In this document: piece after piece, positions 6,241-64,000 of the stretch
Numbering within the stretch: the stretch's first letter is position 1
How the letters are laid out: every line of letters begins with the position of its first letter
Source: an uncultured delta proteobacterium
GTDB taxonomy: Bacteria; Desulfobacterota; Syntrophia; Syntrophales; Smithellaceae
DNA: 64,000 bases
Direction: 5' to 3'
NCBI GenBank assembly: GCA_963710995.1
Contig: CAVQCU010000212.1
Coordinates: forward strand, 32,084-96,083
Notes under the pieces: generated by a model
Seen by the model: the letters and a program-made list of their open reading frames with translations, nothing else
Databases searched by the model: none
What the model was told of the DNA's origin: nothing
Made by a program: the position numbers and the translations under genes

Positions 6241-6367
6241 TATGCGGTTAAAAAATGTCCCATATGCGCGGCGCGCAAGGCCTTCGGAGTGAAGCATATA
6301 TTCTAATACGCCGCAGCGACGAAAGGCCGAAGCACAACAAAGCAGATGGGCGTTTTTCAACGGCATA
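6241..6367 (+). repeat. PAL-1 palindromic MITE-like element, copy 1
   Basis: Ends TATGCGGTTAAAAAA / TTTTTCAACGGCATA are mutually complementary. The interior aligns with the copy at 12121-12246. It ends 1-2 nt from the hdrA stop. Confidence 0.8.
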
Positions 6368-6368
6368 C

Positions 6369-8318
6369 CTAAAATTCCATTAAGCCTTCAATTTCCGCCA
6401 GTACCTGCTCGTTGGTAAAATGACGGGCAATAATCGCCGATGTCGGGCATACTGATGCACAAAGACCGCAGCCTTTACACAAAGCCTCATTAATTTCCGA
6501 AACTCGTTTATCAGCATTAAATGAAGGCGCGCTGTAAGGACATACACGCACACAATTCTGACAACCGCAGCACGACGCGGGATTAACCATCGCCGTGGTC
6601 GCATCAAGCTCCATTTTATCCTTGACGACAATCGTCAAAGCTTCCGCCGCCGCGCCGTTCGCTTGCGCTACGGTATCGGGAATATCTTTCGGACTTTGAC
6701 ATACGCCGGCAATGAAAACACCTTCTGTCATCGTAGCCAACGGCGCCAGTTTAGGATGACGCTCCATGAAAAAGCCCTGTTTGTCGGTGCTCAGATTAAA
6801 GAGTCTGGCGATGTCTTTGTAATCTTCACGAGGCACGATGGCTGGAGAAAGCACAACCATATCCACCGGCACTCTCATAAACTTACTGGTAATAGTATCT
6901 TCCGCCTCCAGAATCAGTCGCCCGGGCTCCTCTTCGCTTTCTGCAACACGAGCCGCCTTACCACGGATAAATTTTACATTTTCTTCTATCAAGCGGTTGT
7001 AAAATTCTTCATAACCCTTACCTGCCGCTCTCATATCAATATAAAACTGGTAGACTTCCGCGGATGTTTTTTCTTTGAAGAGATGCGCAAATTTAAGCGA
7101 ATACATACAGCACACGCGGCTGCAATGCTCACTATGATTCTTATCACGGCTGCCAATGCAATGCAGGATAGCGATAGATTTCGGTTCCGACCCATCTCTG
7201 AGCGTGACCTTGCCGCCGGTAGGACCCGCGGAATTGAACAGTCTTTCCACTTCCAGAGAACTGTAAACGCCCGGATATTTACCATAGCCGTATTGAACCA
7301 GCGGTTTCGTATCCATTAAATTATAGCCGGTCGCTATAATTACCGCTCCAACTTTCACAGTGGAGAAGGTATCCTGCTGCTCGTAATCAATAGCCTTTTG
7401 TTCGCAGACTTTCTGACAAAGTTTGCACTTGCCTTTGATAAAATAAGTACAAGACTCTCTGTCGATAATCGGTTTTTGCGGCACAGCCTGCGGGAAGGGA
7501 ATGTAAATGGCTTTTCTCTTCACCAAACCTTCATCCCACTCGGAAACACCTTTGCCGGGACATTTCTCCGTACAGGCAAGACAGGCATTACACTTGCTAT
7601 GATCGACATAACGCGCCTTCTGTTTAATGGTGATATCAAAGTTGCCCACATAACCTTTGACTTCTGTAACTTCACAGTAGGTGAGCATTTGAATGTTCTT
7701 GTGTTGCAAAACGGCGTCCATTTTAGGGGTCAGAATACAGGCGGAACAATCCAGCGTGGGGAATGTTTTGTCAAACTGGGCCATATGGCCGCCGATCGTA
7801 GAATTTTTTTCCACGAGATAAACTTTTTTGCCGGTATTGGCAAGTTCCAAAGCTGCCTGAATTCCGGCGATACCGCCGCCGACAACCATCACATCGGGAT
7901 TGACGTCGATGATACGCGCGGTCAGCGGCGCCAAAAGCCGTGCGCGATAGACCGCACCATTTAAGAGCGCTTTGGCTTTTGATGTTCCTTCTTCGATATC
8001 ATGGGTTACCCAGGAAAGCTGCTCACGGATGTTAACGATAGTCAGCAGGTATTGATTCAAACCTGCGTTTTCAATAACTTTGCGGAAGGTTTTCTCATGC
8101 ATAAGAGGCGAACAGGCCGTTACAATTACGCGATCCAGTCTGTATTGTTTGATATCGTTGGCAATCATTTCCTGCCCGGGCGTAGAACACATGAACTTGT
8201 AGTCTCTTGCTATAACAACATCCGAAAGTGTGGCTGCAAATTCCGCCAGTTCACTTACACGAATCGTCTTGGCTATATTCAAACCGCAGTGGCAAACAAA
8301 AACACCAATTCTGCTCAT
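6369..8318 (-). CDS. hdrA: Heterodisulfide reductase subunit A-like flavoprotein
   Basis: FAD motif VVGGGIAGIQAAL plus several 4Fe-4S motifs (CNACLACTEKCP; CCGCQNCVRVCP; CKGCGLCASVCP). Confidence 0.9.
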   Translation of the reverse strand: MSRIGVFVCHCGLNIAKTIRVSELAEFAATLSDVVIARDYKFMCSTPGQEMIANDIKQYRLDRVIVTACSPLMHEKTFRKVIENAGLNQYLLTIVNIREQLSWVTHDIEEGTSKAKALLNGAVYRARLLAPLTARIIDVNPDVMVVGGGIAGIQAALELANTGKKVYLVEKNSTIGGHMAQFDKTFPTLDCSACILTPKMDAVLQHKNIQMLTYCEVTEVKGYVGNFDITIKQKARYVDHSKCNACLACTEKCPGKGVSEWDEGLVKRKAIYIPFPQAVPQKPIIDRESCTYFIKGKCKLCQKVCEQKAIDYEQQDTFSTVKVGAVIIATGYNLMDTKPLVQYGYGKYPGVYSSLEVERLFNSAGPTGGKVTLRDGSEPKSIAILHCIGSRDKNHSEHCSRVCCMYSLKFAHLFKEKTSAEVYQFYIDMRAAGKGYEEFYNRLIEENVKFIRGKAARVAESEEEPGRLILEAEDTITSKFMRVPVDMVVLSPAIVPREDYKDIARLFNLSTDKQGFFMERHPKLAPLATMTEGVFIAGVCQSPKDIPDTVAQANGAAAEALTIVVKDKMELDATTAMVNPASCCGCQNCVRVCPYSAPSFNADKRVSEINEALCKGCGLCASVCPTSAIIARHFTNEQVLAEIEGLMEF

Positions 8319-12013: not shown

Positions 12014-12120
12014 AAAAAAATTTTACCTCCTTTTTTATTTGTTTCAATTGTTTCCTGGATTCCCTTGTCTCGCCCATGCTCGCATAACCTAAAGATCACA
12101 AGCGGGAATTACAACTTTTA

Positions 12121-12246
12121 GGGGCTTTTCAAAAATGCTTAGATGCGAGGCGCGCAAGCCTTGAGGAATGAGGCGTATTTATTCATACGCCGCAATGACG
12201 AAAGGCGTAGCGCAACGCAGCAGATGAGCGTTTTTCAAAAGCCCCC
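12121..12246 (+). repeat. PAL-1 element, copy 2
   Basis: GGGGCTTTTCAAAAA ... TTTTTCAAAAGCCCC ends. It abuts the regulator stop codon at 12247. The outer inverted pair AGCGGGAAT (12101-12109) / ATTCCCGCT (12249-12257) extends the palindrome into the CDS. Confidence 0.85.
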
Positions 12247-13647
12247 CTATTCCCGCTCAAAGGTAATCCCATACTTCTCCAACTTCCGTTCGAAGGTGGG
12301 CCGGGAAATCCCCAATACTTCGCAAATTTCCCCTTTATTTTTATCCGTCTCTTTGATGACTTTTCTTATGTAGCGGTCTTCCACTTCGTCCAGAGTTAAA
12401 AATTTGCCCGGCTCCACCTGTTTAAATAAATCCGCAGATGCCTCGCCCGGCAATTTAGAATTATCTTCTTTGCCCAATTCCGGAAAATCACTAACTCCCA
12501 AAACCTGCCCTTTGGCCACAACACAGGCGCGCACAAGCAGATTTTCCAGTTCCCGGATATTGCCCGGCCAATTATAATTCATGAAAATTTCCATCATTTC
12601 GTCGGAAATGCCGATGACCTTTTTGTGCAGATCCAAATTAATTTTTGCCAGTAAGTAGTCGATCAACGAAGGAATATCCTGGATGCGCGCGCGCAGCGGC
12701 GGTAAGTTAATGGCTACGATATTCAGACGATAATACAAATCATCGCGAAATTTTCCTTCATTAACCAAAGTCTTTAAATCTTTGTTGGTCGCGGCCATAA
12801 TCCGGGCGTTAACCTTGACCTTATCTTTCCCCCCCACTCTGTCGAATTCCATTTCCTGCAAAACTCGCAAAAGTTTCGCCTGCAGGTTGACGGACATTTC
12901 GCTGATTTCATCCAGAAAGACTGTGCCGAAACGAGCCAGTTCAAACTTGCCCAGTTTTCGGGCGATAGCGCCGGTGAAGGATCCCTTTTCATGACCGAAT
13001 AATTCCGATTCCAGCAGGGTTTCGACAATGGCCGAACAGTTGACCGCGATAAAGGGTTCGTCGGGTGACGTATTATGATGAATGACTTTGGCGATCAACT
13101 CCTTGCCTGTGCCGCTCTCACCCTGAATCAGCACAGTGGTGCGGCTCTGAGAAACAGTGCCGATAGTTTTAAATATATCCCGCATTTCGTTGCCGGTGCC
13201 GATTATATCTCCAACCCGGAAACTCCGTGACGGCTCCATTAAAAGTCCATCAATCTTTTTTTCCATTTCCAGAGATTTCAAGGCTTTTTTAATCGCCAGG
13301 TCCAGCTCATCGACATTTATAGGTTTATGAATATAATCAAACGCACCGCTCTTCATCGCGTTAATGGTTGTCTCCATATCGTGAAAAGCGGTGATCATGA
13401 TGACCTTGATGTTTTCATTTTCTTCTTTGAGATCTTCCAGAACAGTGAATCCGTCAACATCCGGCAGACGGATATCCAGAATGACAACATCAGAGGGGTC
13501 CTGTATATAATTATTCAAGCCTTCCGTGCCGGTCAGCGCGGTGCTAACTTTGTAACCTTCTTCAGTGAGATATAAATCAAGCGTTTCCACAATCGAAGCA
13601 TCATCATCAATAACAAGAATACTCGGCATAACCTTAACCTTCGCCAT
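12247..13647 (-). CDS. Sigma-54-dependent response regulator (NtrC family)
   Basis: REC domain, AAA+ Walker A GESGTGKE, GSFTGA sigma-54 contact loop, C-terminal Fis-type HTH. Confidence 0.9.
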   Translation of the reverse strand: MAKVKVMPSILVIDDDASIVETLDLYLTEEGYKVSTALTGTEGLNNYIQDPSDVVILDIRLPDVDGFTVLEDLKEENENIKVIMITAFHDMETTINAMKSGAFDYIHKPINVDELDLAIKKALKSLEMEKKIDGLLMEPSRSFRVGDIIGTGNEMRDIFKTIGTVSQSRTTVLIQGESGTGKELIAKVIHHNTSPDEPFIAVNCSAIVETLLESELFGHEKGSFTGAIARKLGKFELARFGTVFLDEISEMSVNLQAKLLRVLQEMEFDRVGGKDKVKVNARIMAATNKDLKTLVNEGKFRDDLYYRLNIVAINLPPLRARIQDIPSLIDYLLAKINLDLHKKVIGISDEMMEIFMNYNWPGNIRELENLLVRACVVAKGQVLGVSDFPELGKEDNSKLPGEASADLFKQVEPGKFLTLDEVEDRYIRKVIKETDKNKGEICEVLGISRPTFERKLEKYGITFERE

Positions 13648-13724: not shown

Positions 13725-13802
13725 TATAATAACGCGACCTCCCGCGGGTTGCGGCTCATTCCTCTCCCGACTGGAGCCAATGGATTCCAAGTCGCGGGAT
13801 TA
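13725..13802 (+). repeat. R4 repeat, copy 1 (TATAATAACGCGACCTCC...GGATTCCAAGTCGCGGGATT)
   Basis: Aligns with 50092-50170 over its full length and with 23824-23873 over the 3' half. Confidence 0.8.
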
Positions 13803-16403
13803 ATCTCTTGGAATATGACGCCTTTCATTACTAGGCAATGTAACACAAACTTTCGTTCCTTTGTCCTTTTCACTGATAATTTCTATTTTACCTTGATGGA
13901 GGTCAACTATTTTTTTTACCAGGGAAAGGCCTAAACCAGTACCATAATTTTTCCGCGTAAAGAAAGGATTAAATATATGCGGCATGTCTGCCTCATCGAT
14001 GCCGCTGCCATTGTCTTTAATCTCCACGACCGCTGCCTGATGAGTTTCATCAAAATAACGCAACGAAACTAGAACTTTTCCATGTTCCTCTACTGCTTCT
14101 ACGGCATTACGGATAACATTTAAAAAAGCTCCAGCCATCATTGCCGCGTCAACTACTATGGGAGGAATATTGCCAAAATTTGTTTGCATCTCAATTTGTT
14201 TATCGGCAATTCCTTTTTCGGCCATAGCTATAGCCTGTTCCAACACTTTGGACAAATCCACAGGAATTTTTTTTGGTTCCACCGGTTTGGCAAAAGCTAA
14301 AACATTATTGACCAGCACCTCCAAATGGTCTACTTCTTTTTCAGCAATCTTAAATCTCTTCAAATCGTTTCCTTCAGGATTCATGCGTTTTGCCAATATT
14401 TGCAAACTCATTTTAATCGACGAAAGAGGATTGCGTACTTCATGAGCTATACCCGCCGAAAGCTGCCCCAAAGCCGACAACTTTTGACTTTCGTAAAGCT
14501 TTTTTTCCAGATTCTTGAATTCCGTAATATCGCGTTGAACCAGTATGTAATGATTGGTTCCGGTAACAGGAGAGGTGGTAATCAGAAGATTATGTTTGCG
14601 GCCGTCCTTGCTCGTTGCTTCAATTTCATAAGGGTCATAAACACCTTTTTTCGCAGCTTCCCATTTGGACAAAACGAAATCTTCGTATCCGGGCGCAACA
14701 AAATCCAAAAAGTATTTCCCTTTGAACTCACGGTTATGAATTATCCCTCCCTTTCTTAAACCAAGGCTCATATAGTTGATGATGCCGTTTTCATCCATCT
14801 CATAAATTTTATCCGGCAAACTATTTATTATCGACTGTAAATAGCTGTAAAGGTCTTCAATCTGTCGCCGCAGTTCAATATTCTCAACCAATTCATTATG
14901 CAATGTCTCGGCGTACTCGCTTAAACTTTTAGTCATTTCTCTTTCGCGCGAAACATCCTGCAGTGTTTCGATTGCCGCTATAATTTCCCTTTTTTCATCA
15001 TAAATAGGCGCCGCCAAAAAATACAAAATCCGGTTGCGGCCACCAAGATTTTCAAAATAATCTGTTGCTTCATAGGCGCCTAATACTTTGTCCGTTTTTT
15101 TTACTTTCTTTGTACCATAATATTTATTCAAATCTTCTATCTCGCTGTCGATAATTAAATCCGCAATAAGCGGCCTTTTGACTGAATAAAAAGGAACGTA
15201 ATGTTTATCAGTGCCAACCATATCTTCAGTCGAATAACCGGTAAGCTCCATGCAAGCGTGGTTCCATAAGATAACTTTGTGTTCCTTGTTGATAACAAAA
15301 GTGGGAATTGGCGAACCTTCAATAATGCCGTCTATAGTTTTCTTTTCCAGGAGCAGTTTTTCCTGCCAGTCCTCCCGCTCTTTTAATCTTTTCTTCTCTT
15401 CCTTGATGCGCAGTCTTTTACCCTCTTTATAGGCAAAAGACATACTGGCAATTATAACTACCCCTATGAGCAATAATGAAATAAAAAGCGTATAAACAAA
15501 AGTTTTACGAACGGGTGAAATTACCAGATTGTACGGAGCAACAACGAAAAGAACCCATTTTTTATCTCCCGCCTGCAACGGATAAAAAGCAACTACACTG
15601 CGCTGCTGTTTTTTATCACTCAGGCGCACCACTGCTTCAAAGTAATTACCATTAGCTGATGAAAAATCAATTTGCGCTCCTTTACCGTTGATCAATAGAT
15701 CTTTTATGTTTTTTCCGACAAATGCTGAATCGGGATGAATAATTATCTGTTGTTTTTCATCCATTAACCAGAGGTCTCCCAATTCATTATTTCTGGTTTG
15801 TTTTTCATATTTATCCACAACTGCCGATAGAGAAAAGGAGACTATCCATGCTCCGGCGAATTTGCCGTCCTGACGCCTCAGAGGGCAGCCGACCACCAGA
15901 TACCGATCCATTTTTTGTTTTAAACTGACTGCACGTGATCGTTCCGGTAAAGCCAAACCTAAATATTGTTTTTGTTCTTTCTGGAGAATCTTAAAGTGAT
16001 CAGACAAATTTATTGCCGGATAGATATTCTGCGGGTAAACGCTCCTTATCTTGCCTGCGGCATCAAACAGGACAATTGTATTAAAAGTGCTTTCCCAGCC
16101 GGAAGACAATATTTTGTAATAACTATCAATTTCTTCGGAAGATATTTTTAGCTGAGGATCAAAATGAGAAAATAAAGCAATATTTTTCCCGACCTGTGAA
16201 AAAATATCGGCCATTCTTGTTGCAGTATTTTGTACATTGGCAAGCTGCTGCCGACTGAACAGATCAACCATATCCTTTTCTCTGGCGCTGTTCACTGTCA
16301 AAGATAAAAGTAGAATCAGGATGATCACCGCTACACTGGCTAACCAGATGCGTACTTTTATAGCCTTATAGAAGAGTTTATTAATTTTACTGAATAAGGT
16401 CAC
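13800..16403 (-). CDS. Sensor histidine kinase with periplasmic Cache-like and cytoplasmic PAS domains
   Basis: H-box HEVRNPL, N-box NVIRNAVEA, DNGSGI, GTGLGLS. Two TM segments flank a ~290-aa extracytoplasmic region. GTG start. Confidence 0.9.
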   Translation of the reverse strand: MTLFSKINKLFYKAIKVRIWLASVAVIILILLLSLTVNSAREKDMVDLFSRQQLANVQNTATRMADIFSQVGKNIALFSHFDPQLKISSEEIDSYYKILSSGWESTFNTIVLFDAAGKIRSVYPQNIYPAINLSDHFKILQKEQKQYLGLALPERSRAVSLKQKMDRYLVVGCPLRRQDGKFAGAWIVSFSLSAVVDKYEKQTRNNELGDLWLMDEKQQIIIHPDSAFVGKNIKDLLINGKGAQIDFSSANGNYFEAVVRLSDKKQQRSVVAFYPLQAGDKKWVLFVVAPYNLVISPVRKTFVYTLFISLLLIGVVIIASMSFAYKEGKRLRIKEEKKRLKEREDWQEKLLLEKKTIDGIIEGSPIPTFVINKEHKVILWNHACMELTGYSTEDMVGTDKHYVPFYSVKRPLIADLIIDSEIEDLNKYYGTKKVKKTDKVLGAYEATDYFENLGGRNRILYFLAAPIYDEKREIIAAIETLQDVSREREMTKSLSEYAETLHNELVENIELRRQIEDLYSYLQSIINSLPDKIYEMDENGIINYMSLGLRKGGIIHNREFKGKYFLDFVAPGYEDFVLSKWEAAKKGVYDPYEIEATSKDGRKHNLLITTSPVTGTNHYILVQRDITEFKNLEKKLYESQKLSALGQLSAGIAHEVRNPLSSIKMSLQILAKRMNPEGNDLKRFKIAEKEVDHLEVLVNNVLAFAKPVEPKKIPVDLSKVLEQAIAMAEKGIADKQIEMQTNFGNIPPIVVDAAMMAGAFLNVIRNAVEAVEEHGKVLVSLRYFDETHQAAVVEIKDNGSGIDEADMPHIFNPFFTRKNYGTGLGLSLVKKIVDLHQGKIEIISEKDKGTKVCVTLPSNERRHIPRD

Positions 16404-16679: not shown

Positions 16680-17131
16680 TAATGAGACTCGCTGAAAATG
16701 AGTCCCTAGTTTCGGAAGTATAACGCGCTGAAACTAGTTGGACGTAATGAGACTCAAATATTACAAATGCAGTGCAGTGATATTTGTAAGTCGAATTATC
16801 CAATAGCCAAAGGCTATTGGGAATTATACCAGGCGCTTAGCGCCGTGGTAAAACGAACGAAGTGAATAACCTAAAGGTCACTATAGATTTGAAGCGTTAG
16901 TCGTAATGAGGCTAAAACTTCAAAAACAAATCGCATTGAAGTTTTTAAGCCGAATTTTCCAATAGCCAAAGGCTATTGGAAATTAATGAAACTAAAATAT
17001 TACAGGCGTAGCGCAGTAATATTTGTTAGTTAAATTATCCCGCCGCAGGCGGAGGATATCGAAGATATCTGTGGTATCCCCGAAGCGAAGCGGGATTTAC
17101 GCCCCAAATTGTTTTGAAGCTCCTACACGTG
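16680..17131 (+). repeat. Hairpin-module array A
   Basis: Tandem TAATGAGNCT..AGNCG-framed hairpins, CCAATAGCC-AAA-GGCTATTGG twice (16800-16820, 16959-16979), and CCCGCC-GCA-GGCGGA. Modules are shared with arrays B-E. Confidence 0.85.
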
Positions 17132-17356
17132 ATTTGAATGTTTTATAGTAACCCATTTAACAAAACATTAAATCCGGTTTCAAATTGTCAGGGTTTTCCG
17201 TTTGTTAAATAACTTGCAGATATTTTCACATATGAAATTTTTTTATTTTTATTTTATTGTGAAGTGAAATAATCTCAATAAATTAGATCGACATTTTTTT
17301 CATAGCCGCGCTATTCAAATGAAATATTTAGAAATAATTTTTTCATACTAAAGTCA

Positions 17357-17909: not shown

Positions 17910-19223
17910 ATGTCAAAAACTAAAAAAGGTAAGCAGTTTTTTAATATAGGAGGCGTGTTCTTCCTGCTTATCGTAATCCCCTTATCATTAATGGCTTTCT
18001 TAATTGCCAACGGCATGTTTAAGCTGGGGGTTACCATAAAGCAGAGTACAATATCTGCTATAGACCAAAAATCTCAGGAAGATATAAGAGCTAGAGCCGT
18101 CAATACAGCAAACGAAGTTGCCAGTTTCCTCATGGAAAGCAATAAAGATTTACAAGTCGCAACAATCATTCCCTCAACAGAAGCTGTATACAAACAGTTT
18201 ATTTCTGAAAATAAAAAACCGGTCTGGGTCAAACATGACGGTAAAATACAGCAGGTATTGATCCCGCTGTACAAAGAAATGGCTCTGATTGATAAAAACG
18301 GCAACGAACAAATTAAAGTCGTTGACGGTCAGGCGATGCCGGCGAAAAAACTGGTTAATGTCAGCAATCCGGCCAATACAACATATAAAACTGAAGATTA
18401 TTTTGCTAAGACAAAAAATCTGAATAAAGGCGAAGTTTATGTTTCCCCGGTAACAGGGTTCTATGTCGATAAGGCAGCGTTTGAAAAGGGACAAAGATTT
18501 TCCGGAATCGTCCGTTTTGCGACACCGGTATTCAATAAAGATGGCTTCGCGGGTATAATTACACTGGCCTTGGATTATCGTCATCTGGCCGAGTTTACCC
18601 ATCACCTTGTTCCTACGCAGGCGGAAAAGGTATTTGAAACACAGAGTTCTGGCGGTAATTACGCTTATATGGTCGACCATCGCGGTTTTGTCATTTCCCA
18701 TCCTAGTGATTTTCATATTGTTGGACTCAACCCTAACGGAACAATTGTTCCAACTGTTACGGCTCAGAACGCAACAGAACTGGCAAAGAAAGGCGCAGAA
18801 GCGTTGAACCTCTTCCAGTTGGGTTTTATGGATCCCAATTTATTTACTATCGCGAAAGAAGCTGTACAAGGAAAATCAGGAGTTTTAATGTACAAATTTG
18901 GTGGATACAACAAGTTCGTCGCCTATGCGCCGATCAAGTTTTATGCGTCAAACCTTCCTGCACCTACCGGTTTTGGCTGGATCGGCCTGGGACTGGAAAT
19001 TGAGAAATATAACGAAGCGGCACTAAAGGTATCGCAAAATATTGAAAAGGAATCAAAAGCATGGACTGCGACAATCATCTTTATTCTTATCGCTTCCATG
19101 ATTATTCTGTTCTTCATTATGCTGCTTTTGGTTCGTGGAGTCAGCCGTTCATTAGAGGCGGAAATCCCAAAAGGTTCAGAAGGTCAATCATCATTTGATG
19201 ATGATGATGATGATGATAAATAA
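17910..19223 (+). CDS. Cache-like extracytoplasmic sensor domain protein without output domain
   Basis: TM1 - ~330 aa extracytoplasmic region with a Cache-like pattern - TM2 - ~35-aa tail ending DDDDDDDK. No kinase, MCP or GGDEF module. Confidence 0.7.
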   Translation: MSKTKKGKQFFNIGGVFFLLIVIPLSLMAFLIANGMFKLGVTIKQSTISAIDQKSQEDIRARAVNTANEVASFLMESNKDLQVATIIPSTEAVYKQFISENKKPVWVKHDGKIQQVLIPLYKEMALIDKNGNEQIKVVDGQAMPAKKLVNVSNPANTTYKTEDYFAKTKNLNKGEVYVSPVTGFYVDKAAFEKGQRFSGIVRFATPVFNKDGFAGIITLALDYRHLAEFTHHLVPTQAEKVFETQSSGGNYAYMVDHRGFVISHPSDFHIVGLNPNGTIVPTVTAQNATELAKKGAEALNLFQLGFMDPNLFTIAKEAVQGKSGVLMYKFGGYNKFVAYAPIKFYASNLPAPTGFGWIGLGLEIEKYNEAALKVSQNIEKESKAWTATIIFILIASMIILFFIMLLLVRGVSRSLEAEIPKGSEGQSSFDDDDDDDK

Positions 19224-19253
19224 GTAAACTTAATTTAATCAATTAATCAAAAG

Positions 19254-19280
19254 GCCGAATTTCGATTCGGCTTTTTTTTT
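19254..19280 (+). terminator. Rho-independent terminator GCCGAAT-TTCG-ATTCGGC + T9
   Basis: 7-bp GC-containing stem followed by nine T, 30 nt after the Cache gene stop. Confidence 0.8.
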
Positions 19281-19525
19281 AATGAGACTCGCTGAAAACG
19301 AACGAAGTGAAGTTTGAAGCGTTAATCGAATTATTTATTCCGCAAGTGAAGCACAGCGGAATTGGCAAGTTGAACAATCCCGCACAGCGGCGGTTATGAG
19401 ACTCCAACATGACAAGCGAAGCGTAGTCAGATTGGCTAGTCGAATTATCCCGCAAAGCGGAGGGTATGATACCCGGAAGCTTGCTGCGAAACGTTCCCAA
19501 AGCTTGATTTGGGATTCATACCCAC
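19281..19525 (+). repeat. Hairpin-module array B
   Basis: Starts (T)AATGAGACTCGCTGAAAACGAA. Contains ATTCCGC-N12-GCGGAAT, GGCAAGTTGAAC and AATCCCGC-ACA-GCGGCGG, and ends TTCATACCCAC. Confidence 0.85.
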
Positions 19526-19669
19526 AATTTCCGTTATTATTATTTTTAAAAATAGCATGGACTTTAATCAAATACAATATACATAATACTTTTTATACTT
19601 ATTTAAATGTAAACTACAAAAACTTGTATTATATTAATTGTATTTTGCTACAAAGAAAAGGAGATCAAA

Positions 19670-20598: not shown

Positions 20599-20800
20599 AT
20601 CACGGGTATGAACCCCAAAGCAAGCTTTGGAAACAGATTCCGCAGTAAGCTGCGGGGTTTTAAACCCTCCACTGCGCGGGATAATTCGACCAGCAAGCTT
20701 CAGTGCACTTTGTTTCTGAAGCTTGGGTTTCATTACAACTTACCAATTCCGCTACGCCTACAGTGACCTTTAGGTTATTCGCTTTCGGAATTGGAGTTTC
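20599..20800 (-). repeat. Hairpin-module array C (reverse orientation)
   Basis: The reverse complement starts GAAACTCCAATTCCG and ends TTCATACCCGTGAT. It shares its module order with arrays E and B. Confidence 0.85.
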
Positions 20801-20816
20801 AACAATAACAGGCACT

Positions 20817-23823: not shown

Positions 23824-23873
23824 TATAGTGGGGTCCCGGCTGGAGTTGGGGGATTCCAAGTCACGGGATTGAC
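23824..23873 (+). repeat. R4 repeat, copy 2 (3' half only)
   Basis: CCCGGCTGGAGTTGGGGGATTCCAAGTCACGGGATTGA aligns with the 3' parts of copies 1 and 3. It starts right after the yidC stop. Confidence 0.75.
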
Positions 23874-23885
23874 ATGAGGTTAAAA

Positions 23886-24851
23886 ATGAGTTCAAGAATT
23901 TTAGAGATAGAAGAAAAATCGATTGACGAAGCCATTGAAAAGGCTTGCCTCGAATTTGGCGTACCACGGGAGAAATTAAATATCGAAATTATCTCTGGAG
24001 AATCTGGAGGTTTTTTGGGATTATTTTCCAAAAAAGCAAAAATAAAAGCATCTCTGGTTTCTCTGGACATGGATTTTAGCTTCACGGATCATCCAAAAGC
24101 TAAAAGCGAATCAAAAACAGAACATCGAGAAAAGCCGGCAAAAAATGTTATACCTGAAAAAAAAATTTTAACGGAAAAACCGGGAAAGAAGACAGAGCCT
24201 GTAGTTTCCAGCTCCAACACTATACCAGTGTCAAAGGCAAGTGAATCAAAAATAAAAATAGAACCACGGGTAAAGCCGGCAAAAAATGTTATACCTGAAA
24301 AAAAAATTATAACAGAAAAACATGGAAAGCAGACAGAGCCCGTAGTTTCCATCTCCAGCGCTGTGCTGGCGTCAAACGCAAAGGATCTGCTGGAAGGCAT
24401 TTTGCAGAGGATATCATTGGAATGTAAGGTGACTGTTAATGAAACGCCGGAAAAAATAATTCTCGACATTGAAGGCGATAACAGCGGTTTGCTTATCGGC
24501 AAACGCGGACAGAATATAGATGCTCTTCAGTATATATTGAACAAAGCAATCAATAAATTTGATAATGGACACAAAATGATCCTGATCGATTCGGGAGAGT
24601 ACAGAAAAAGAAGAGAAGAATTCCTGCTTGGTTTAGCGGAAAAAATAAGGGAAAGAGTAAAAAAGACCATGAAACCAGTATCGCTTGCCCACATGAATGC
24701 CCATGACCGGCGTATTATCCATATGGTGCTGCAAGAAGATGAATCGCTAATCACGCAAAGCCGCGGCGAAGGTAAATACAGAAAGATCGTCATTCTTCCC
24801 GCGAAAGCAGGCAATACCAAGCATGTCAGAGAAAAAAAATCACGGGTATAA
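23886..24851 (+). CDS. jag: Jag-like KH/R3H RNA-binding protein
   Basis: N-terminal Jag_N-like segment, C-terminal KH (GKRGQNIDALQYI) and R3H (HDRRIIH) motifs. Contains an internal 141-nt tandem duplication. Start chosen at the ATG with a GAGG SD. Confidence 0.85.
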   Translation: MSSRILEIEEKSIDEAIEKACLEFGVPREKLNIEIISGESGGFLGLFSKKAKIKASLVSLDMDFSFTDHPKAKSESKTEHREKPAKNVIPEKKILTEKPGKKTEPVVSSSNTIPVSKASESKIKIEPRVKPAKNVIPEKKIITEKHGKQTEPVVSISSAVLASNAKDLLEGILQRISLECKVTVNETPEKIILDIEGDNSGLLIGKRGQNIDALQYILNKAINKFDNGHKMILIDSGEYRKRREEFLLGLAEKIRERVKKTMKPVSLAHMNAHDRRIIHMVLQEDESLITQSRGEGKYRKIVILPAKAGNTKHVREKKSRV

Positions 24852-25063
24852 ACCCAAAGCAAGTGGTTGCGTATCATGTATAGTCCCACTTAGCTTCGCA
24901 TGTGGGATAATTTCCAATAGCGTTTAGCTATTGGATAATTCGTCTAAAAAACTTCAACGCGCTTTGCTTTTGAAGTTTAAGACTCATTACGACTAACGCT
25001 TCAAACTTCATCCCGACGAGTCTGGATTCGTTTTCAGCGAGTCTCATTAAATTGGAGTTTCAC
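24841..25063 (-). repeat. Hairpin-module array D (reverse orientation)
   Basis: The reverse complement starts GTGAAACTCCAATT and ends TTTATACCCGTG. It overlaps the last 3 codons and the stop of jag. Confidence 0.85.
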
Positions 25064-25118
25064 GAACAAGAATAGTTTTTAGTCAATTTAACTATATATA
25101 AAGGGGAAGTGTCCAACT

Positions 25119-26498: not shown

Positions 26499-26633
26499 TA
26501 CCAATCCGCTTTCATCGGCTAACTTTGTTGGTAGCGTTGTCGGCTTCCTCAACGTATAACCTGAAGGTCACGCGTGTTTAAAATACGTCTCGTCGCCTCC
26601 TCCTCGCCGCCGCATTATCCTTTGACCGGGAGC
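26498..26633 (-). repeat. PAL-2 element copy (reverse orientation, with ~21-nt insert)
   Basis: ATACCAAT...TTTGTTGGTAGCGTTGTCGGCTTCCTCAACG matches the right arm of 62492-62616. It begins at the last base of the mnmE stop. Confidence 0.75.
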
Positions 26634-29212: not shown

Positions 29213-30498
29213 ATGTCCAAGAATGATTATAACAAGCAGGCGTTACGTCGTCAAAGGATTAAGAAAACAACTTTCATCGTTGGGGTTGACATCGGCAATG
29301 CTTTCAATGCGTTGGGATTTATGGACAAGGAAGGCAACGTTTTAGGAAGCTGTACGAAGCTCTATAACAGTCGCGAAGGATTTGAGCAATTTGTAGATAT
29401 GATTGAAGGGCTAAAAGCGAAGCATCATTTGAGGGATGTTCTCATCGGGATGGAACCAACGGGACATTACTGGAGGAAGCTGGCCTATTTTGCAAAAGAG
29501 CATGGCTATGAAGTTCGTTTTGTGAGGACTACAGCACTGAAGCATCACCGGGAGTTGGATGAGAGTTCATCAGCTAAGAGTGACCAAAGAGATGCGTTAA
29601 CCATAGCGAATATAACCCGAGAAGGTAAATATATTGACACCGTCATCAAGGATGGAGTGCTGCGGCAGTTGCGGACGCTATCGAAAGCCAGGGAGAGACT
29701 TTTCCGATACAGCGTGAGTGCAAAAAACTCATTACATGCCGCCCTGGACGATTATTTTCCCGAATTGCATGAGATATTCTGGTCAAGGGGATCACGGAGT
29801 CTGTGGATTATTCTTGAGCAATGTCCTTTCCCCAGGACGTTGTGTTGATGAAGGTATCGACTCTCCGAGACTTGATTGTACAAAGTTCAAGAAAGAAAGC
29901 GGGCTTTGCCGTTAAGGCAGAAAAACTTATTGAATCTGCTCAAAAAAGTATTGGAATAAAACAGATTGGCAACGCTGACCGATACCGGGTTCAAATGTGC
30001 CTGGAAGAAGTGAAACGGACAGTCCTGTTGCTCAATAATCTGGATAAACAGTTGAAGCTCCTACTTAAGGAGACAACCGCAGCATCCTATCTGATGAGCA
30101 TACCGGGCGTAGGCCCTCTTTCTGCCGCTGTGTTTTTGGGAGAACTGGGAGATCCTACCCATTTTCATAATGCCCGTCAGATCGTGAAGTACGCCGGATA
30201 TGATCCCCAGGAGAGTGATTCAGGTTCGCGTATTGGTCGGAAGTTCATATCCAAGAAGGGAAGATGGCTCTTACGAAAATATCTTTTCTTTATGAGTATG
30301 AGAGTGGTGTTTCTGAGTAACTATTTTCAGGAATACTACCTTCGGAAATTGGAAACAAAGAACAGGGTTGGTCAACAGCCCAGGCGCAAAGAGATGCTCT
30401 GTGCAGTGGCTATTAAGCTGATCAAAGTAATCTTTGCCTTACTGCGGGATAAGCGGGAATTTGAAGATTTAGCGCCTGCTGCTGCGGCATGTGCATAA
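29213..30498 (+). pseudogene. IS110-family transposase, split by a -1 frame change at a C4 run (29830-29833)
   Basis: ORFs 29213-29848 and 29821-30498 join as ..ILEQCPFP|QDVVLMKV.. if one C is added. Confidence 0.75.
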
Positions 30499-40531: not shown

Positions 40532-40556
40532 ATATTCACTCCGCTAATTTATTGTT

Positions 40557-40663
40557 GAAACTCCAATTCCGAAAGCGCAGCGCAACGGAATTGGTAAGTT
40601 GAACAATCCCGCAAAGCGGAGGGTATAATACCCCGCAGCTTGCTTTGGGGTATTATACCCGTG
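40557..40663 (+). repeat. Hairpin-module array E (minimal 107-nt version)
   Basis: GAAACTCCAATTCCG-N14-CGGAATTGGTAAGTTGAACAATCCCGC-AAA-GCGGAGGGTATAATACCCC-N12-GGGGTATTATACCCGTG. It overlaps the last 3 codons and the stop of aroF. Confidence 0.88.
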
Positions 40664-41672
40664 AATGTCTCATCGCCGCGGCGATTGCCTTTAATTCGTC
40701 CATCAATTGATAAAACTTCTCCGGTTTCAGAGACTGCGCTCCATCGGAGACGGCTTTTTCCGGTTCCGGATGAACTTCCACGATAAGACCATCAGCGCCA
40801 ACAGCAACCGCGGCACGGGACAGCGGAATTACATATTTCCAATGACCGGCAGCATGACTGGGATCGACAATAACCGGCAGATGCGTCAAACCCTTCAACA
40901 CCGGAACAGCGCTTAAATCCAGAGTGTTTCTTGTGGCCGTTTCAAACGTCCTGATGCCGCGTTCGCATAGAATAACATTAGGGTTACCTGAAGAAAGAAT
41001 ATATTCCGCCGACATGAGTAACTCTTCGATGGTGGTCATCATCCCTCTTTTTAAAAGCACCGGCTTTTTCGAACGACCGACTTCTTTGAGCAGGGCAAAA
41101 TTCTGGGTATTGCGCGCGCCGATTTGCAGCATGTCGGCATAAGATTCCACAAGATCAACATCAGCGGGATTGACCACTTCAGTGACCGTCGGCAGACCCG
41201 TTCTCACACTAACCTGATTTAATACTTTCAAGCCTTCTTCTTCCATACCCTGGAAGCTGTATGGCGAAGTGCGCGGTTTGTAGGCGCCGCCTCTAAGAAT
41301 CTGGGCACCGCCCTTTTTGGCGACATAGGCGGACTCTAGTAATTGCTCTTCGCTTTCAATCGCACAGGGACCGGCTATTACCACGAATTCCGGGCCGCCG
41401 ATTTTAATCAGACCTACGGAAACCACGGTATTACCTTCGTGCGATTCACGACTTGCCAACTTGTATGGTTTTAAAATCGGCATGGTTTTTTCTACCCCCG
41501 GCAAGGATTCCGCGTATTTAAGGATCCCCTTGTCGCGATTGTCACCGACTGCCCCGATAATTGTCCGTTCAACACCGATTGAAGGATGCGCTTTGTATCC
41601 GACAGATTCAATCCAGTGAATCACATCTTCAATTTGCTTTTCTGTAGCTTGATTCTTCATTACAATGATCAT
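40653..41672 (-). CDS. aroF: 3-deoxy-7-phosphoheptulonate (DAHP) synthase, class I-beta with N-terminal regulatory domain
   Basis: KDO8PS-like core ([25 protein letters not shown]) after a ~70-aa ferredoxin-like N-terminal domain. Confidence 0.9.
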
Positions 41673-42318: not shown

Positions 42319-42591
42319 ATGACCATCCCGCGTGAGTAGTTTGCTTAACGCAAACTAATTTTTATTTGACTGCGTATCGGTTTGTCAACGACCCGAACGA
42401 CCAATGACAGGCGAATAATTTCTCACCAATCCGTCGTGGATTGAATTTTTTTTTGATAAGAACTTGCTTTTATGGGAAAGGAGTATAGGAAAAATATTCC
42501 TGTATGTCAAAGGAATATTGCAGGCTTCAAAGCATGGGATGCGATCGCAATGTTTATCAGCAGCCATTCACCCCTTGACAATGAATATCTC

Positions 42592-42653
42592 ATACCATTT
42601 CTAAATCAAAGATGGCATTGAGGTGGTTAAGCGAAAGCAACGAGGCGTACATG
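42592..42653 (+). repeat. PAL-2 element, left half only
   Basis: ATACCATTTCTAAATCAAAGATGGCATTGAGGTGG...CAACGAGGCGTA aligns with 62492-62550. Confidence 0.8.
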
Positions 42654-42815
42654 AAAAAAATAGCTGAACTATATCTTAATATGTGTTAGAATTATCATAG
42701 ACAGGCAATCTTGGTTAATAAGCGATCGGGTATTATGGTGGGCAATTTTTGACTTCAATAAGACTTGACGAAAGGTAATCGTAAATCGGTATCTTAAACA
42801 GTTACTAAGGAGAGT

Positions 42816-43849: not shown

Positions 43850-43853
43850 GCAT

Positions 43854-43880
43854 ATACCATTTCTAAGTCAAGCTACGGGA
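43854..43880 (+). repeat. PAL-2 left-end fragment
   Basis: ATACCATTTCTAAGTCAAGC matches the PAL-2 terminus. Confidence 0.6.
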
Positions 43881-50091: not shown

Positions 50092-50170
50092 TATAATAAC
50101 GCGACCTCCGCGATTTATGGCGCATTCATCCGCCGGCTGGAGACGGGGGATTCCAAGTCGCAGGATTGAT
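50092..50170 (+). repeat. R4 repeat, copy 3
   Basis: TATAATAACGCGACCTCCGCG...GGGGATTCCAAGTCGCAGGATTGA aligns with copy 1. Confidence 0.8.
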
Positions 50171-50912: not shown

Positions 50913-51058
50913 TTTTTGGTCCTCCGTTAGAACAAGTATATCCCTTTGCAGTATTTTTTAGTTAAAATTTGCTTTCGTTAAGGTGAAGCATAGGAAAAAA
51001 TATATTGTCTGTCAATGAAATTCGGTGTTTCATTCCCTATTTTATATCCAAGATTTTC

Positions 51059-51087
51059 TTGACATACAGGATCGATTTTCTTATAGT
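51059..51087 (+). promoter_or_regulatory. P5 promoter cassette copy 1 (TTGACA-17-TATAGT)
   Basis: The -35, spacer length, -10 and ~30-nt downstream leader are conserved with copies at 59221 and 62626. Confidence 0.7.
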
Positions 51088-51135
51088 TCGAGCATAAAGA
51101 AGTAATATCTTATCAAAATAAGGAGGGTGCTTGAG

Positions 51136-59098: not shown

Positions 59099-59220
59099 GA
59101 TTTCCCACTCCTTGTTTTTTATTGTATGTAAATTGAATAAAACAATCAATTAATATTCTGAATAATAATTAAATGCCAACTCCTTTTGGCAAATAAACAG
59201 ACCATGTGGGCAAGATTTTC

Positions 59221-59249
59221 TTGACATACAAGACTGAGTTTCCTATAGT
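59221..59249 (+). promoter_or_regulatory. P5 promoter cassette copy 2 (TTGACA-17-TATAGT, leader module duplicated)
   Basis: Same -35/-10 as the other copies. The downstream TTCAACCATAAAAGAGCAATACCTTACCAA is repeated in tandem. Confidence 0.7.
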
Positions 59250-59485
59250 TCAACCATAAAAGAGCAATACCTTACCAATGTTCAACCATGAAAAAGTAAT
59301 ACCTTATCAATTATTAGTTTTCTGACAAGCATGGTAGACTCTGGCTGTCCTTGAAAAAGGATTATTACTTATAGTATTATAGATTTTTCTCGAAAAGTAT
59401 AATTAAATCGATTGATGAAATTGATAAAAATGGAACAGGAATTTCAACTATAATTATTTGTCAAAACCAATTGGGAAGGGAACCT

Positions 59486-62426: not shown

Positions 62427-62491
62427 ATCTCCGTGATTAGACATATAACTTCTGATGGGTAATCGGTGCCGCACCCTTCATTTTGAAATTA

Positions 62492-62616
62492 ATACCAATT
62501 CTAAATCAAAGATGATATTGAGGCGGCTAGGCGGAGGCAACGAGGCGTATTATACATGCGTTGAGGAAGCCGACAACGACGCCAACAAAAATAGCGCTTT
62601 GATTTAGAATTGGTAT
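62492..62616. repeat. PAL-2 element, full-length copy with perfect 20-bp terminal inverted repeats
   Basis: ATACCAATTCTAAATCAAAG (62492-62511) and CTTTGATTTAGAATTGGTAT (62597-62616). Confidence 0.9.
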
Positions 62617-62625
62617 AAGATTTCT

Positions 62626-62654
62626 TTGACATACAAGATTGAATTTCCTATAGT
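62626..62654 (+). promoter_or_regulatory. P5 promoter cassette copy 3 (TTGACA-17-TATAGT)
   Basis: Identical hexamers and spacing; leader TTCAACCTTGAAAAAGCAATACATTATCAA. Confidence 0.7.
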
Positions 62655-62704
62655 TCAACCTTGAAAAAGCAATACATTATCAAGAATATTGTAGACTGAA
62701 GATC

Positions 62705-63568: not shown

Positions 63569-63608
63569 GAATTTAAATACTTTATTATATATCGCCAAGT
63601 ACAATCTT

Positions 63609-63645
63609 ATACCATTTCTAAATCAAAGATGATATTTAGGCGACC
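63609..63645 (+). repeat. PAL-2 left-end fragment abutting a start codon
   Basis: ATACCATTTCTAAATCAAAGATGATATTTAGG matches the PAL-2 left end. Confidence 0.75.
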
Positions 63646-64000
63646 ATGAAAAAATATGTCATTTTGATAGTCGCTGTTTTAATTCAAATCTGTATAGGCG
63701 TTGGTTATTCCTGGAGCACCTTTGTCCCCGCTTTAAAACAGACCTTTGGTCTTTCTATTACCCAGACACAGACAATTTTTGGCATCGGTTCACTTATATA
63801 ATTACGTTGTTTATTTTTGTCGGAGGCCGCATTCAGGATCGTCTGGGGCCGCGAATTCCTGTTGTAGTCGGCGGTATTATCCTGGGCAGCAGTTATATGT
63901 TGGCTGGATGTTCCAACGGATCATATCTCACCCTGCTTTTACTTATCGGCGTCTGCGCCGCCATTGGTGTGGGGCTCTGCTATATCTGCCCCATCGCCTG
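63646..64000 (+). CDS. MFS transporter (oxalate/formate-antiporter-like), frame change near 63794-63800, 3' end beyond window
   Basis: MKKYVILIVAVLIQICIGVGYSWSTF... stops at 63799. The -1 frame continues YIITLFIFVGGRIQDRLGPR..., and restoring one T in the TT run joins them. Confidence 0.7.

Follow-up and report, generated by a model that had tools for sequence, protein, structure and literature searches.

How very short repeats spread, among them hairpins like the repetitive extragenic palindromes (REP), the small dispersed repeats (SDR) of cyanobacteria and the hairpin clusters of organelles, is still largely unsolved. REP sequences, bacterial interspersed mosaic elements (BIMEs) and the REPINs of Pseudomonas are mobilized by RAYT Y1 transposases. 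The BOX elements of Streptococcus pneumoniae follow the plan boxA-boxB(n)-boxC, in which the end modules are conserved and the inner ones vary in number; they are non-coding with predicted stable structures. IS200/IS605-type elements carry similar subterminal hairpins at both ends, which one TnpA recognizes. Here, we describe five arrays, A to E, in a 64-kb stretch (the window) within a 120.7-kb metagenome contig (CAVQCU010000212.1) of an uncultured member of the Smithellaceae. The five arrays are copies of a single, previously undescribed family of small gene-less DNA elements of the Smithella lineage. We consider it rather probable that this lineage-specific family is one of small, non-coding, non-autonomous mobile DNA elements. 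A literature search found no description of Smithella repeats.

The Smithella family works like REP/BIME, BOX and the cyanobacterial SDR, and it is a member of none of them. A REP is an imperfect palindrome of 20 to 40 nt with a GTAG (or CGTC) tag at one end (PMC3733652). Like REP/BIME sequences and Pseudomonas REPINs, the Smithella elements are high-copy extragenic hairpin mosaics, often located past genes, that vary among relatives; they lack terminal inverted repeats and target duplications and are probably handled as folded single strands. Their modules, however, have a fixed 55-nt geometry framed by TAATGAG...CGAATTAT and no terminal GTAG or CGTC tag, so that the REP/BIME resemblance proposed in the initial annotation holds for the logic and not for membership. 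BIME units alternate in orientation with set linkers, whereas the Smithella units are mostly co-oriented and tandem or nested, with inverted units found only as occasional nested insertions. The elements resemble BOX in being bounded, modular, non-coding and predicted to fold stably, but BOX sequences are unrelated, their modules are not nested in loops, and they have no fixed-length covarying hairpin design. Miniature IS200/IS605 and HUH rolling-circle elements (IS91, Helitron-like) share the lack of inverted repeats and duplication, the presence of subterminal hairpins, insertion beside a short conserved target (here TTTA^, at a host A^T junction) and a right-end hairpin about 12 nt from the end. 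In contrast to those families, the left and right hairpins of the Smithella elements are dissimilar, and the elements grow internally by modules; neither a TnpA or Rep gene nor an autonomous parent turned up in the sequence sampled. The mobile palindromic, G+C-cluster and double-hairpin elements of organelles (yeast, Allomyces, Volvox), for which we know of no enzyme, are also short hairpins found inserted in one another and between genes, but they differ in their organelle hosts, in their unrelated sequences and sizes, and in lacking a conserved 55-nt design.

Organization of the five elements

Comparison loci (L-numbers) were picked from a species-representative genome collection by one exact 19-mer, TAATGAGACTCGCTGAAAA, which is common to A, B and D. 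Rereading the regions of the window found the five arrays where the initial annotation had placed them. All follow a common plan of at least one 55-nt hairpin module, short G+C hairpins and a right-end hairpin terminating in ATACCCGTGA. The order of parts is constant across loci: module(s), an optional CCAATAGCC hairpin, a CCCGC-type hairpin, and the right-end hairpin with its ATACCCGTGA terminus. The motifs GAAACTCCAATT and ATACCCGTGA, previously noted as the two ends of C, D and E, each occur in exactly three copies in the window, at opposite ends of these three elements (0.67 copies of GAAACTCCAATT would be expected with at most one mismatch). The GAAACTCCAATT left end is the 5' half of a 55-nt module variant (40555-40607 in E, 49.9 bits). 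A and B are complete elements built to this plan as well; their left module is of the TAATGAG type, and their right ends have degenerated (CACGTGAT and ATACCCACAAT). The hairpin CCAATAGCC-AAA-GGCTATTGG (repeat family D13) lies at 16800-16820 and 16959-16979, with a variant at 24914-24934, exactly as claimed, and the units described as sharing a frame give three exact matches to TAATGAGNCT-N33-37-NCGAATTAT in the window against 0.00 expected. The modular scaffold thus stood, but what had been called arrays are each better seen as one bounded element that has grown internally. Their parts are as follows.

16680-17133, + strand: element A, 454 nt; nested block interrupting a canonical 55-nt module, followed by additional modules, by short hairpins and by the degenerate right end ..CTACACGTGAT
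16680-16698, + strand: 5' half of the host canonical module of A, TAATGAGACTCGCTGAAAA, broken after the second tandem G.A
16699-16849, + strand: nested block of A, between the halves of the host module
16699-16744, + strand: 5'-truncated module in the nested block (model match 16702-16744, 33.4 bits)
16745-16799, + strand: intact module in the nested block (73.8 bits)
16800-16827, + strand: CCAATAGCC hairpin of family D13 plus GAATTAT, in the nested block
16828-16849, + strand: hairpin ACCAGGCGCTTAGCGCCGTGGT, in the nested block
16850-16903, + strand: 3' half of the host canonical module, carrying S1
16867-16886, + strand: 20-nt S1 unit, TAACCTAAAGGTCACTATAG, at the same insertion point as in the S1-free orthologue comparison L019/L051
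16904-16958, 16959-16979 and 16984-17038, + strand: module (56.6 bits), second CCAATAGCC hairpin and module (65.8 bits) of A
17039-17133, + strand: short G+C hairpins of A (CCCGCCGCAGGCGGAGG; ATATCGAAGATATCTGTGGTAT; CCCCGAAGCGAAGCGGGAT) and right-end remnant
19280-19527, + strand: element B, 248 nt; directly 3' of the T-run of the Cache-gene terminator (terminator 19249-19276)
19280-19334, 19335-19378 and 19379-19393, + strand: canonical module, 5'-truncated left-end-type module and CCCGC hairpin of B
19394-19448, 19449-19464 and 19465-19527, + strand: module, CCCGC hairpin and right-end hairpin of B, with the variant end ATACCCACAAT
20599-20805, - strand: element C, 207 nt; 8 nt downstream of the RNase P RNA, on the same strand
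20736-20805 and 20681-20735, - strand: left-end module of C with S1 at 20758-20777, and a further module
20665-20680 and 20599-20664, - strand: CCCGC hairpin and right-end hairpin of C
24840-25066, - strand: element D, 227 nt; within the last jag codons
25050-25066, 24990-25049 and 24935-24989, - strand: left-end stub TTCGTGAAACTCCAATT, canonical module with the apex TCCAGACTCGTCGGGA, and a further module of D
24914-24934, 24885-24906 and 24840-24884, - strand: CCAATAGCT hairpin plus AAATTAT, CCCACATGCGAAGCTAAGTGGG, and right end of D
40552-40664, + strand: element E, 113 nt; minimal form with three hairpins
40552-40607, 40608-40623 and 40624-40664, + strand: left-end 55-nt module (49.9 bits), CCCGCAAAGCGGAGGG and right-end hairpin of E

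When element A is folded, the outer canonical stem encloses the inner hairpins. The break point in its host module, CGCTGA^, and the type of block inserted there recur in L048 and L112, while its right part is common to L008, L112 and L113. The model matches in B score 71.1, 58.8 and 16.2 bits, and those in C 69.1 and 24.4 bits. Elements in the size class of E (100 to 110 nt) are found in 12 other loci, several with E's plan; the left hairpin (CCAATTCCG..CGGAATTGG) and the right hairpin (ATACCCC..GGGGTAT) are unrelated. The arrays have no repeat/spacer periodicity, every segment belongs to a repeated module family, and no cas gene occurs among the Pfam/NCBIfam assignments along the window and 10 kb past its right end (open reading frames [ORFs] of at least 150 aa in the first 13.6 kb). 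We accordingly rejected CRISPR, as the initial annotation had done.

The 55-nt module

A loose two-frame pattern retrieved 130 units from the window and the loci, 122 of which are exactly 55 nt long. All share a single register. Read inward, a closing helix of 4 bp (TAAT/ATTA or TAGT/ACTA) is followed by a 2x2 internal loop of G.A/A.G, four more base pairs, two nucleotides bulged on the 3' side, and a variable stem of 10 bp, which is capped by a 12-nt apex with the mini-hairpin R-C-GNA-G-Y. The canonical module, which is the commonest, has a second G.A/A.G loop within the variable stem. The frames TAATGAG/CGAATTAT are conserved, an invariance that is partly imposed because the search pattern fixed parts of them; the variable stem, the apex and pair 3-52 were left free. 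Among 72 distinct modules, 92.9% of stem cells are paired, compared with 72.3% in column shuffles and 26 to 39% with slid partners. Changes on both sides are seen for 17 of the 20 pairs, and the covariation score is 0.577 versus 0.199. The inner stems therefore do change with complementarity kept, as the initial annotation had read from two units. A covariance model of the module finds 12 matches in the window, all within A to E, and 250 matches in 743 kb of loci. Folded as single-stranded DNA, all five arrays outperform dinucleotide shuffles, with z scores of -8.8 (A), -3.2 (B), -4.8 (C), -4.7 (D) and -8.3 (E).

A fold this constrained could belong to an RNA. The arrays might specify functional RNA structures (stabilizers of 3' untranslated regions, terminators or insulators, small RNAs, or protein scaffolds) that have spread since the RNA is useful, in which case the covariation would record selection on the RNA fold. 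The very strong covariation and fixed 55-nt geometry agree with this, and RNAs commonly contain G.A tandems in internal loops as well as GNA/GNRA-like apices. Many copies also lie at the 3' ends of genes, with about one-quarter of canonical modules directly after the T-run of an intrinsic terminator, and canonical modules have changed little between species, 35 of 55 departing from the consensus by no more than 2 mismatches. We nevertheless judge an RNA function unlikely as the explanation. Both orientations relative to genes occur, with 38 canonical modules sense and 18 antisense and with 6 left-end/right-end elements sense and 15 antisense. The wobble asymmetry typical of RNA is not seen either, as G.T mismatches in stems (42) are not in excess over A.C (47). 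Mixed orientation and the absence of a G.U excess argue against selection at the RNA level, though not decisively. An Rfam 15 scan of the window brings only RNase P RNA to threshold, and at E<=1 the arrays have nothing besides weak terminator-driven matches at 19222-19337; together with the mixed orientation, this argues against a dedicated RNA gene, and no convincing promoter was found within the arrays. A known RNA family was rejected both at the gathering threshold and at E<=1. Moreover, modules occur inside other repeats, at times inverted, and matching sites are empty in close relatives, with no replacement seen. The G.A/A.G loops and GNA apices are strand specific (C.T/T.C and unremarkable on the other strand), which argues that one strand folds.

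Empty and occupied insertion sites

To compare orthologous positions, we used loci found through Jag homologues, the 19-mer loci, and L008 and L035. The site of element D, between jag and mnmE, is empty in L109, L110 and L113, where it reads GAAAAAAAA|CAAGAATAG, and occupied in the window, L108 and L112. The insertion is clean: TCACGGG...CACGAA has been inserted and the A8 run is unchanged, indicating no target duplication beyond a 2-nt ambiguity. The site of element C is empty in L008, L110, L112 and L113 and occupied in the window and L035. Further empty/occupied pairs are L006/L062 (ATATTTA|ATTTTGG), L042/L048 and L011/L086, whose junctions are less exact as the genomes are 83 to 93% identical around the sites. 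Module content thus varies among relatives and sites are either empty or occupied, as the comparison of orthologous spacers suggested in the initial annotation now reveals.

The empty sites define the true limits of the element, from TT(G/C)(T/G)T-GAAAC at the start to GTGA before TT at the end. The shared start motif described earlier was correct, but the element begins about 5 nt further left. In most copies, and in agreement with the empty sites, T-T-T-A precedes TTNGT-GAAAC at the left flank (T49, T52 and A32 of 60 left ends at -8 to -6), and TT follows GTGA at the right (T51 and T48 of 59 right ends). The target is therefore T/A-rich, with the consensus TTTA^TT, and is often a terminator T-run or the last codons of a gene; the duplication ranges from 0 to at most 2 nt. 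The left end, TT(G/C)(T/G)TGAAACTCC, is not complementary to the right end, ATACCCGTGA; terminal inverted repeats are absent. About 12 nt separate the right-end hairpin from the element end. A classical miniature inverted-repeat transposable element (MITE) was rejected on the lack of both terminal inverted repeats and target duplication.

Insertion alters the ends of genes. Jag ends in ..KKQE* in L110, where the gene is uninterrupted, and in ..KKSRV* after insertion of D. The DAHP synthase beside E, on the other strand, also ends in ..SRV*, derived from the right end of E. Two proteins of the window hence end in an element-encoded SRV, with the three codons and stop at 24840-24851 (Jag) and 40653-40664 (DAHP synthase). 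Genes entering the right end show no preferred reading frame among 72 right ends (7, 4 and 8 long ORFs per frame). Such host effects, whether new stop codons or 3' structures, would be by-products.

Internal turnover at occupied sites

Occupied sites differ in what lies between the element boundaries. At the site of A, the window, L008, L112 and L113 have both boundaries in common, with interiors that are not the same. Nesting is heavy in the window; L008 carries a single composite in reverse orientation, inserted at GTTTG^AAGCG; in L112 a module plus hairpin is perfectly duplicated in tandem; and the units of L113 have decayed. The sequence of L110 at this site is unrelated. The site of B is occupied in all relatives examined (L008, L110, L112 and L113), with differing module content. 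The initial annotation had remarked that A and B flank the atpE-Cache operon as direct repeats, an arrangement that looks incidental because of the unrelated sequence at the A site of L110 and the occupancy of B in every relative. At the C site, the flanks of the window and L035 are 97 to 98% identical and the right halves of the elements are identical, while the left halves are made of different modules and the breakpoints fall within the conserved frames. At the site of D, the window has the long form of the canonical module and L108, whose Jag is 96% identical, the short one. In the short form, found in at least five loci, CTATAG replaces the segment between the halves of the second G.A motif. 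This form, TAATGAGACTCGCTGA-CTATAG-GAAGCG.., recurs in L047, L095, L103, L105 and L112 besides L108 (1730-2060), and its palindromic filler CTATAG also terminates many S1 units (..GGTCACTATAG).

Clean nested insertions are seen in L027/L072 and L019/L051. The added sub-units are whole modules, 21-nt CCAATAGCC hairpins and the 20-nt S1, and their insertion points are G15A16^A17, G37^A38 and G49^A50 in the G.A loops, GAATTAT^CC, and apical loops. Sub-units enter at positions that are unpaired in the host hairpin (G.A internal loops, apical loops and junctions), so that the host helices survive and the structures nest. Resident elements accordingly change by sub-unit gain, by tandem duplication of module-plus-hairpin units, and by module exchange at conserved frames.

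These changes raise the question of whether any dedicated mobility is needed. Old repeats could diversify by replication slippage, tandem duplication and ectopic conversion at their frames, the apparent insertions being conversions from paralogues. Perfect tandem duplications of module-plus-hairpin units in L112 and L110 fit this process, as do the exchanges between C and L035 and between the window and L108, which break exactly in conserved frames or G.A motifs, and a D-like composite that recurs as a unit in L036 with 87% identity. Conversion, however, cannot seed copy-free sites, such as those of D and C, L006/L062, L042/L048 and a viral contig described below, and S1 occurs in unrelated repeat families and isolated hairpins without shared homology arms. 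We regard an origin without dedicated mobility as improbable.

The 20-nt unit S1

S1 consists of TAACCTRAAGGTCAY plus about 5 nt and is represented by 56 distinct copies, 40 of which are preceded by GAA, GCA or GTA, against a background of 4.8%. Its hosts are module apices of several subfamilies, the left-end module of array C, isolated G+C hairpins, other S1 copies and hairpins of unrelated repeats, amounting to at least five contexts. The comparison of L019 with L051 reveals an exact 20-nt gain. The spread of S1 is the part of the data hardest to explain by recombination alone.

SDR of the Nostocaceae (sequence families SDR1-8), described by Elhai et al. in 2008 (Genome Res 18:1484), reportedly are about 20 to 27 nt long and insert precisely, including into other repeats, by a mechanism and an enzyme that are unknown. 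This work is cited in PMC3116915 and PMC5861425. Compared by behavior only, S1 acts like an SDR; it differs in its deltaproteobacterial syntroph host, in being one layer of a larger 55-nt module system and in its preference for G-N-A^ in hairpin loops.

S1 and the modules together raise a more far-reaching idea, which we hold only tentatively and think doubtful on balance: hairpin units of 20 to 55 nt may each be independently mobile, with the unpaired nucleotides in other DNA hairpins (G.A internal loops and GNA loops) as their targets, and may thereby nest in one another and in themselves; the enzyme moving them would belong to a class that has not so far been connected with cargo this small. 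If true, they would form a self-nesting system at the lower size limit of transposable DNA.

S1-like units also lie in hairpin loops of repeats unrelated to the arrays at 26556-26571 and 12085-12099 of the window, and copies of the 26556 repeat in L045 and L105 carry the same unit at that position. The S1 core, TAACCTAAAGGTCAC, is identical at 13 of 15 positions to a tRNA-Met(CAT) stretch spanning the anticodon arm and variable loop, TAACCCAAAGGTCAG (L057, 2015-2091). This likeness may be chance, with about 1.6 random matches expected at that stringency.

Dispersal in the Smithella lineage

The 19-mer TAATGAGACTCGCTGAAAA is present in more than 104 stretches among the matches listed, and nearly all of these are metagenome-assembled genomes (MAGs) of Smithella, Syntrophaceae or Smithellaceae from bogs, fens, lakes and digesters. 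About 4 chance matches are expected in the collection; L013, L018 (Peribacillus) and L037 have the 19-mer only, with no covariance-model match. Real arrays are also present in bins labelled 'Mariniphaga' and 'Dehalococcoidia', and these contigs are probably mis-binned. The 743 kb of loci represent about 20 Smithella/Smithellaceae MAGs. With more than 100 loci and the 250 model matches noted above, the modules are indeed repeated elsewhere, as the initial annotation anticipated. An assembly artefact was ruled out by the presence of the family in many independent assemblies.

Besides the selected clusters, family motifs form 85 additional ones, not all of which are genuine; this comes to about 1 in every 10 kb. 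The overall density of about 1 element per 10 to 13 kb would imply a few hundred elements per genome. The loci contain 37 left-end/right-end pairs with a spacing of 39 to 565 nt, and elements fall into size classes of about 100 to 110 nt (like E), 129 to 134 nt and 150 to 306 nt. Array D has no match in plasmid and phage collections. Among viral contigs, only a single 55-nt module was found; with a partial G+C hairpin, it lies between two genes (L116, 1540-1640) of the 27-kb contig IMGVR_UViG_3300037067_008050. Separately, eleven loci from several MAGs (L009, L010, L015, L025, L028, L052, L054, L064, L070, L076 and L080) have the conserved stretch ATTTTTGAAAGCTTACTTGGTATTATGCCCGGTAAATCAACC ahead of a canonical module, and this stretch is either one old orthologous site or another repeat.

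The regular density, the extragenic position and the conserved frames TAATGAG/CGAATTAT would also suit clustered binding sites for a host DNA-binding protein (a nucleoid protein, gyrase or a replication factor, as proposed for BIMEs) that are kept for chromosome organization. Both presence and content vary at matching sites, which is a poor fit with a required architectural role, and the covarying stems would be left unexplained. We therefore give such binding sites very little credence.

A model for mobilization

We favor mobile elements over these alternatives. The basic element comprises a 55-nt hairpin module, a short G+C hairpin and a right-end hairpin, without terminal inverted repeats. 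Its fixed 55-nt geometry, covarying stems, G.A/A.G loops and R-C-GNA-G-Y apices suggest that the unit recognized and moved would be a folded single strand, most likely of single-stranded DNA. Mobilization would occur in trans, by an enzyme unlinked to the elements. The leading candidate is an HUH-type nuclease or transposase, either Y1 TnpA/RAYT-like or rolling-circle-like, although none was found. The absence of inverted repeats and duplication, the short target, the right hairpin about 12 nt from the end and the insertions at unpaired positions all point to such an enzyme acting on single-stranded DNA, as HUH enzymes on this substrate (IS200/IS605, RAYT, IS91, Helitrons) leave that combination of features.

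Several results weigh against a mobile family of this kind. G.T and A.C mismatches are equally common and do not tell which strand, or which kind of nucleic acid, folds. The left and right hairpins are unlike each other and unlike IS608-type ends, the sub-unit insertion points have no single common sequence motif, and ectopic gene conversion, instead of transposition, could account for all the module swaps that break at conserved frames. A RAYT or IS200/IS605-type transposase, which the initial annotation had named as a candidate, did not emerge: tblastn with IS608 TnpA and the Escherichia coli RAYT gave nothing significant in 0.86 Mb (the window and 104 loci), a weak test with these two query sequences, and no RAYT Pfam family was found among the genes of the window and its flanks. 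ORF clustering revealed no enrichment of transposases among 1,300 ORFs around elements in the 104 loci; the enriched families are ordinary (a TPR membrane protein, a PAS-GGDEF-EAL protein, an ABC-F protein and acyl-CoA enzymes). An autonomous copy with the same ends was not found in the 0.86 Mb, in which left-end/right-end pairs 1.2 to 2.9 kb apart enclose ordinary genes. The only transposase of the window is of the IS110 family (DEDD; gene at 29213-30498), and a link to it was rejected as its flanks have no similarity to the element ends. Finally, selecting loci with a single exact 19-mer, and modules with a pattern in which the frames are partly fixed, biases both the counts and the frame invariance.

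The Smithella family is an unusually readable record of short-repeat spread, with its fixed covarying 55-nt design, its empty and occupied sites and its insertion points at non-Watson-Crick positions; the 20-nt S1, caught in several unrelated hosts and in itself, adds to this record. The elements will also confuse the assembly and annotation of uncultivated syntrophs.

Gene context and other repeats in the window

The genes of the window are ordinary and include redox enzymes, a sensor kinase, atpE and a Cache protein, the RNase P RNA, yidC, jag, mnmE and the shikimate pathway. A separate MITE-like family has true terminal inverted repeats, ATACCATTTCTAAATCAAAG...CTTTGATTTAGAATTGGAAT, with copies at 42591-42700, 43853-43871, 62491-62640 and 63608-63666 and in L103, L109 and L112. 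In L109 and L112 it adjoins the D site and holds S1 units, and in L109 also a 55-nt module. A long hairpin repeat, AGGGGCTTTTCAAAAATGCT ... AGCGTTTTTCAAAAGCCCC, has two copies after genes (12120-12250 and 6280-6371). A third repeat family, CCGGCTGGAG..GGGGGATTCCAAGTCGCGGGATTGA, is located just past gene ends at 13742-13804, 23836-23872 and 50108-50170, with related copies in L006 and L072. A 67-nt promoter-like repeat (TTGACA ... TATAGT) lies upstream of three genes (51050-51116, 59212-59310 and 62617-62683), and the jag coding region contains a tandem 141-nt duplication at 24113-24381 (84% identity over 128 nt).

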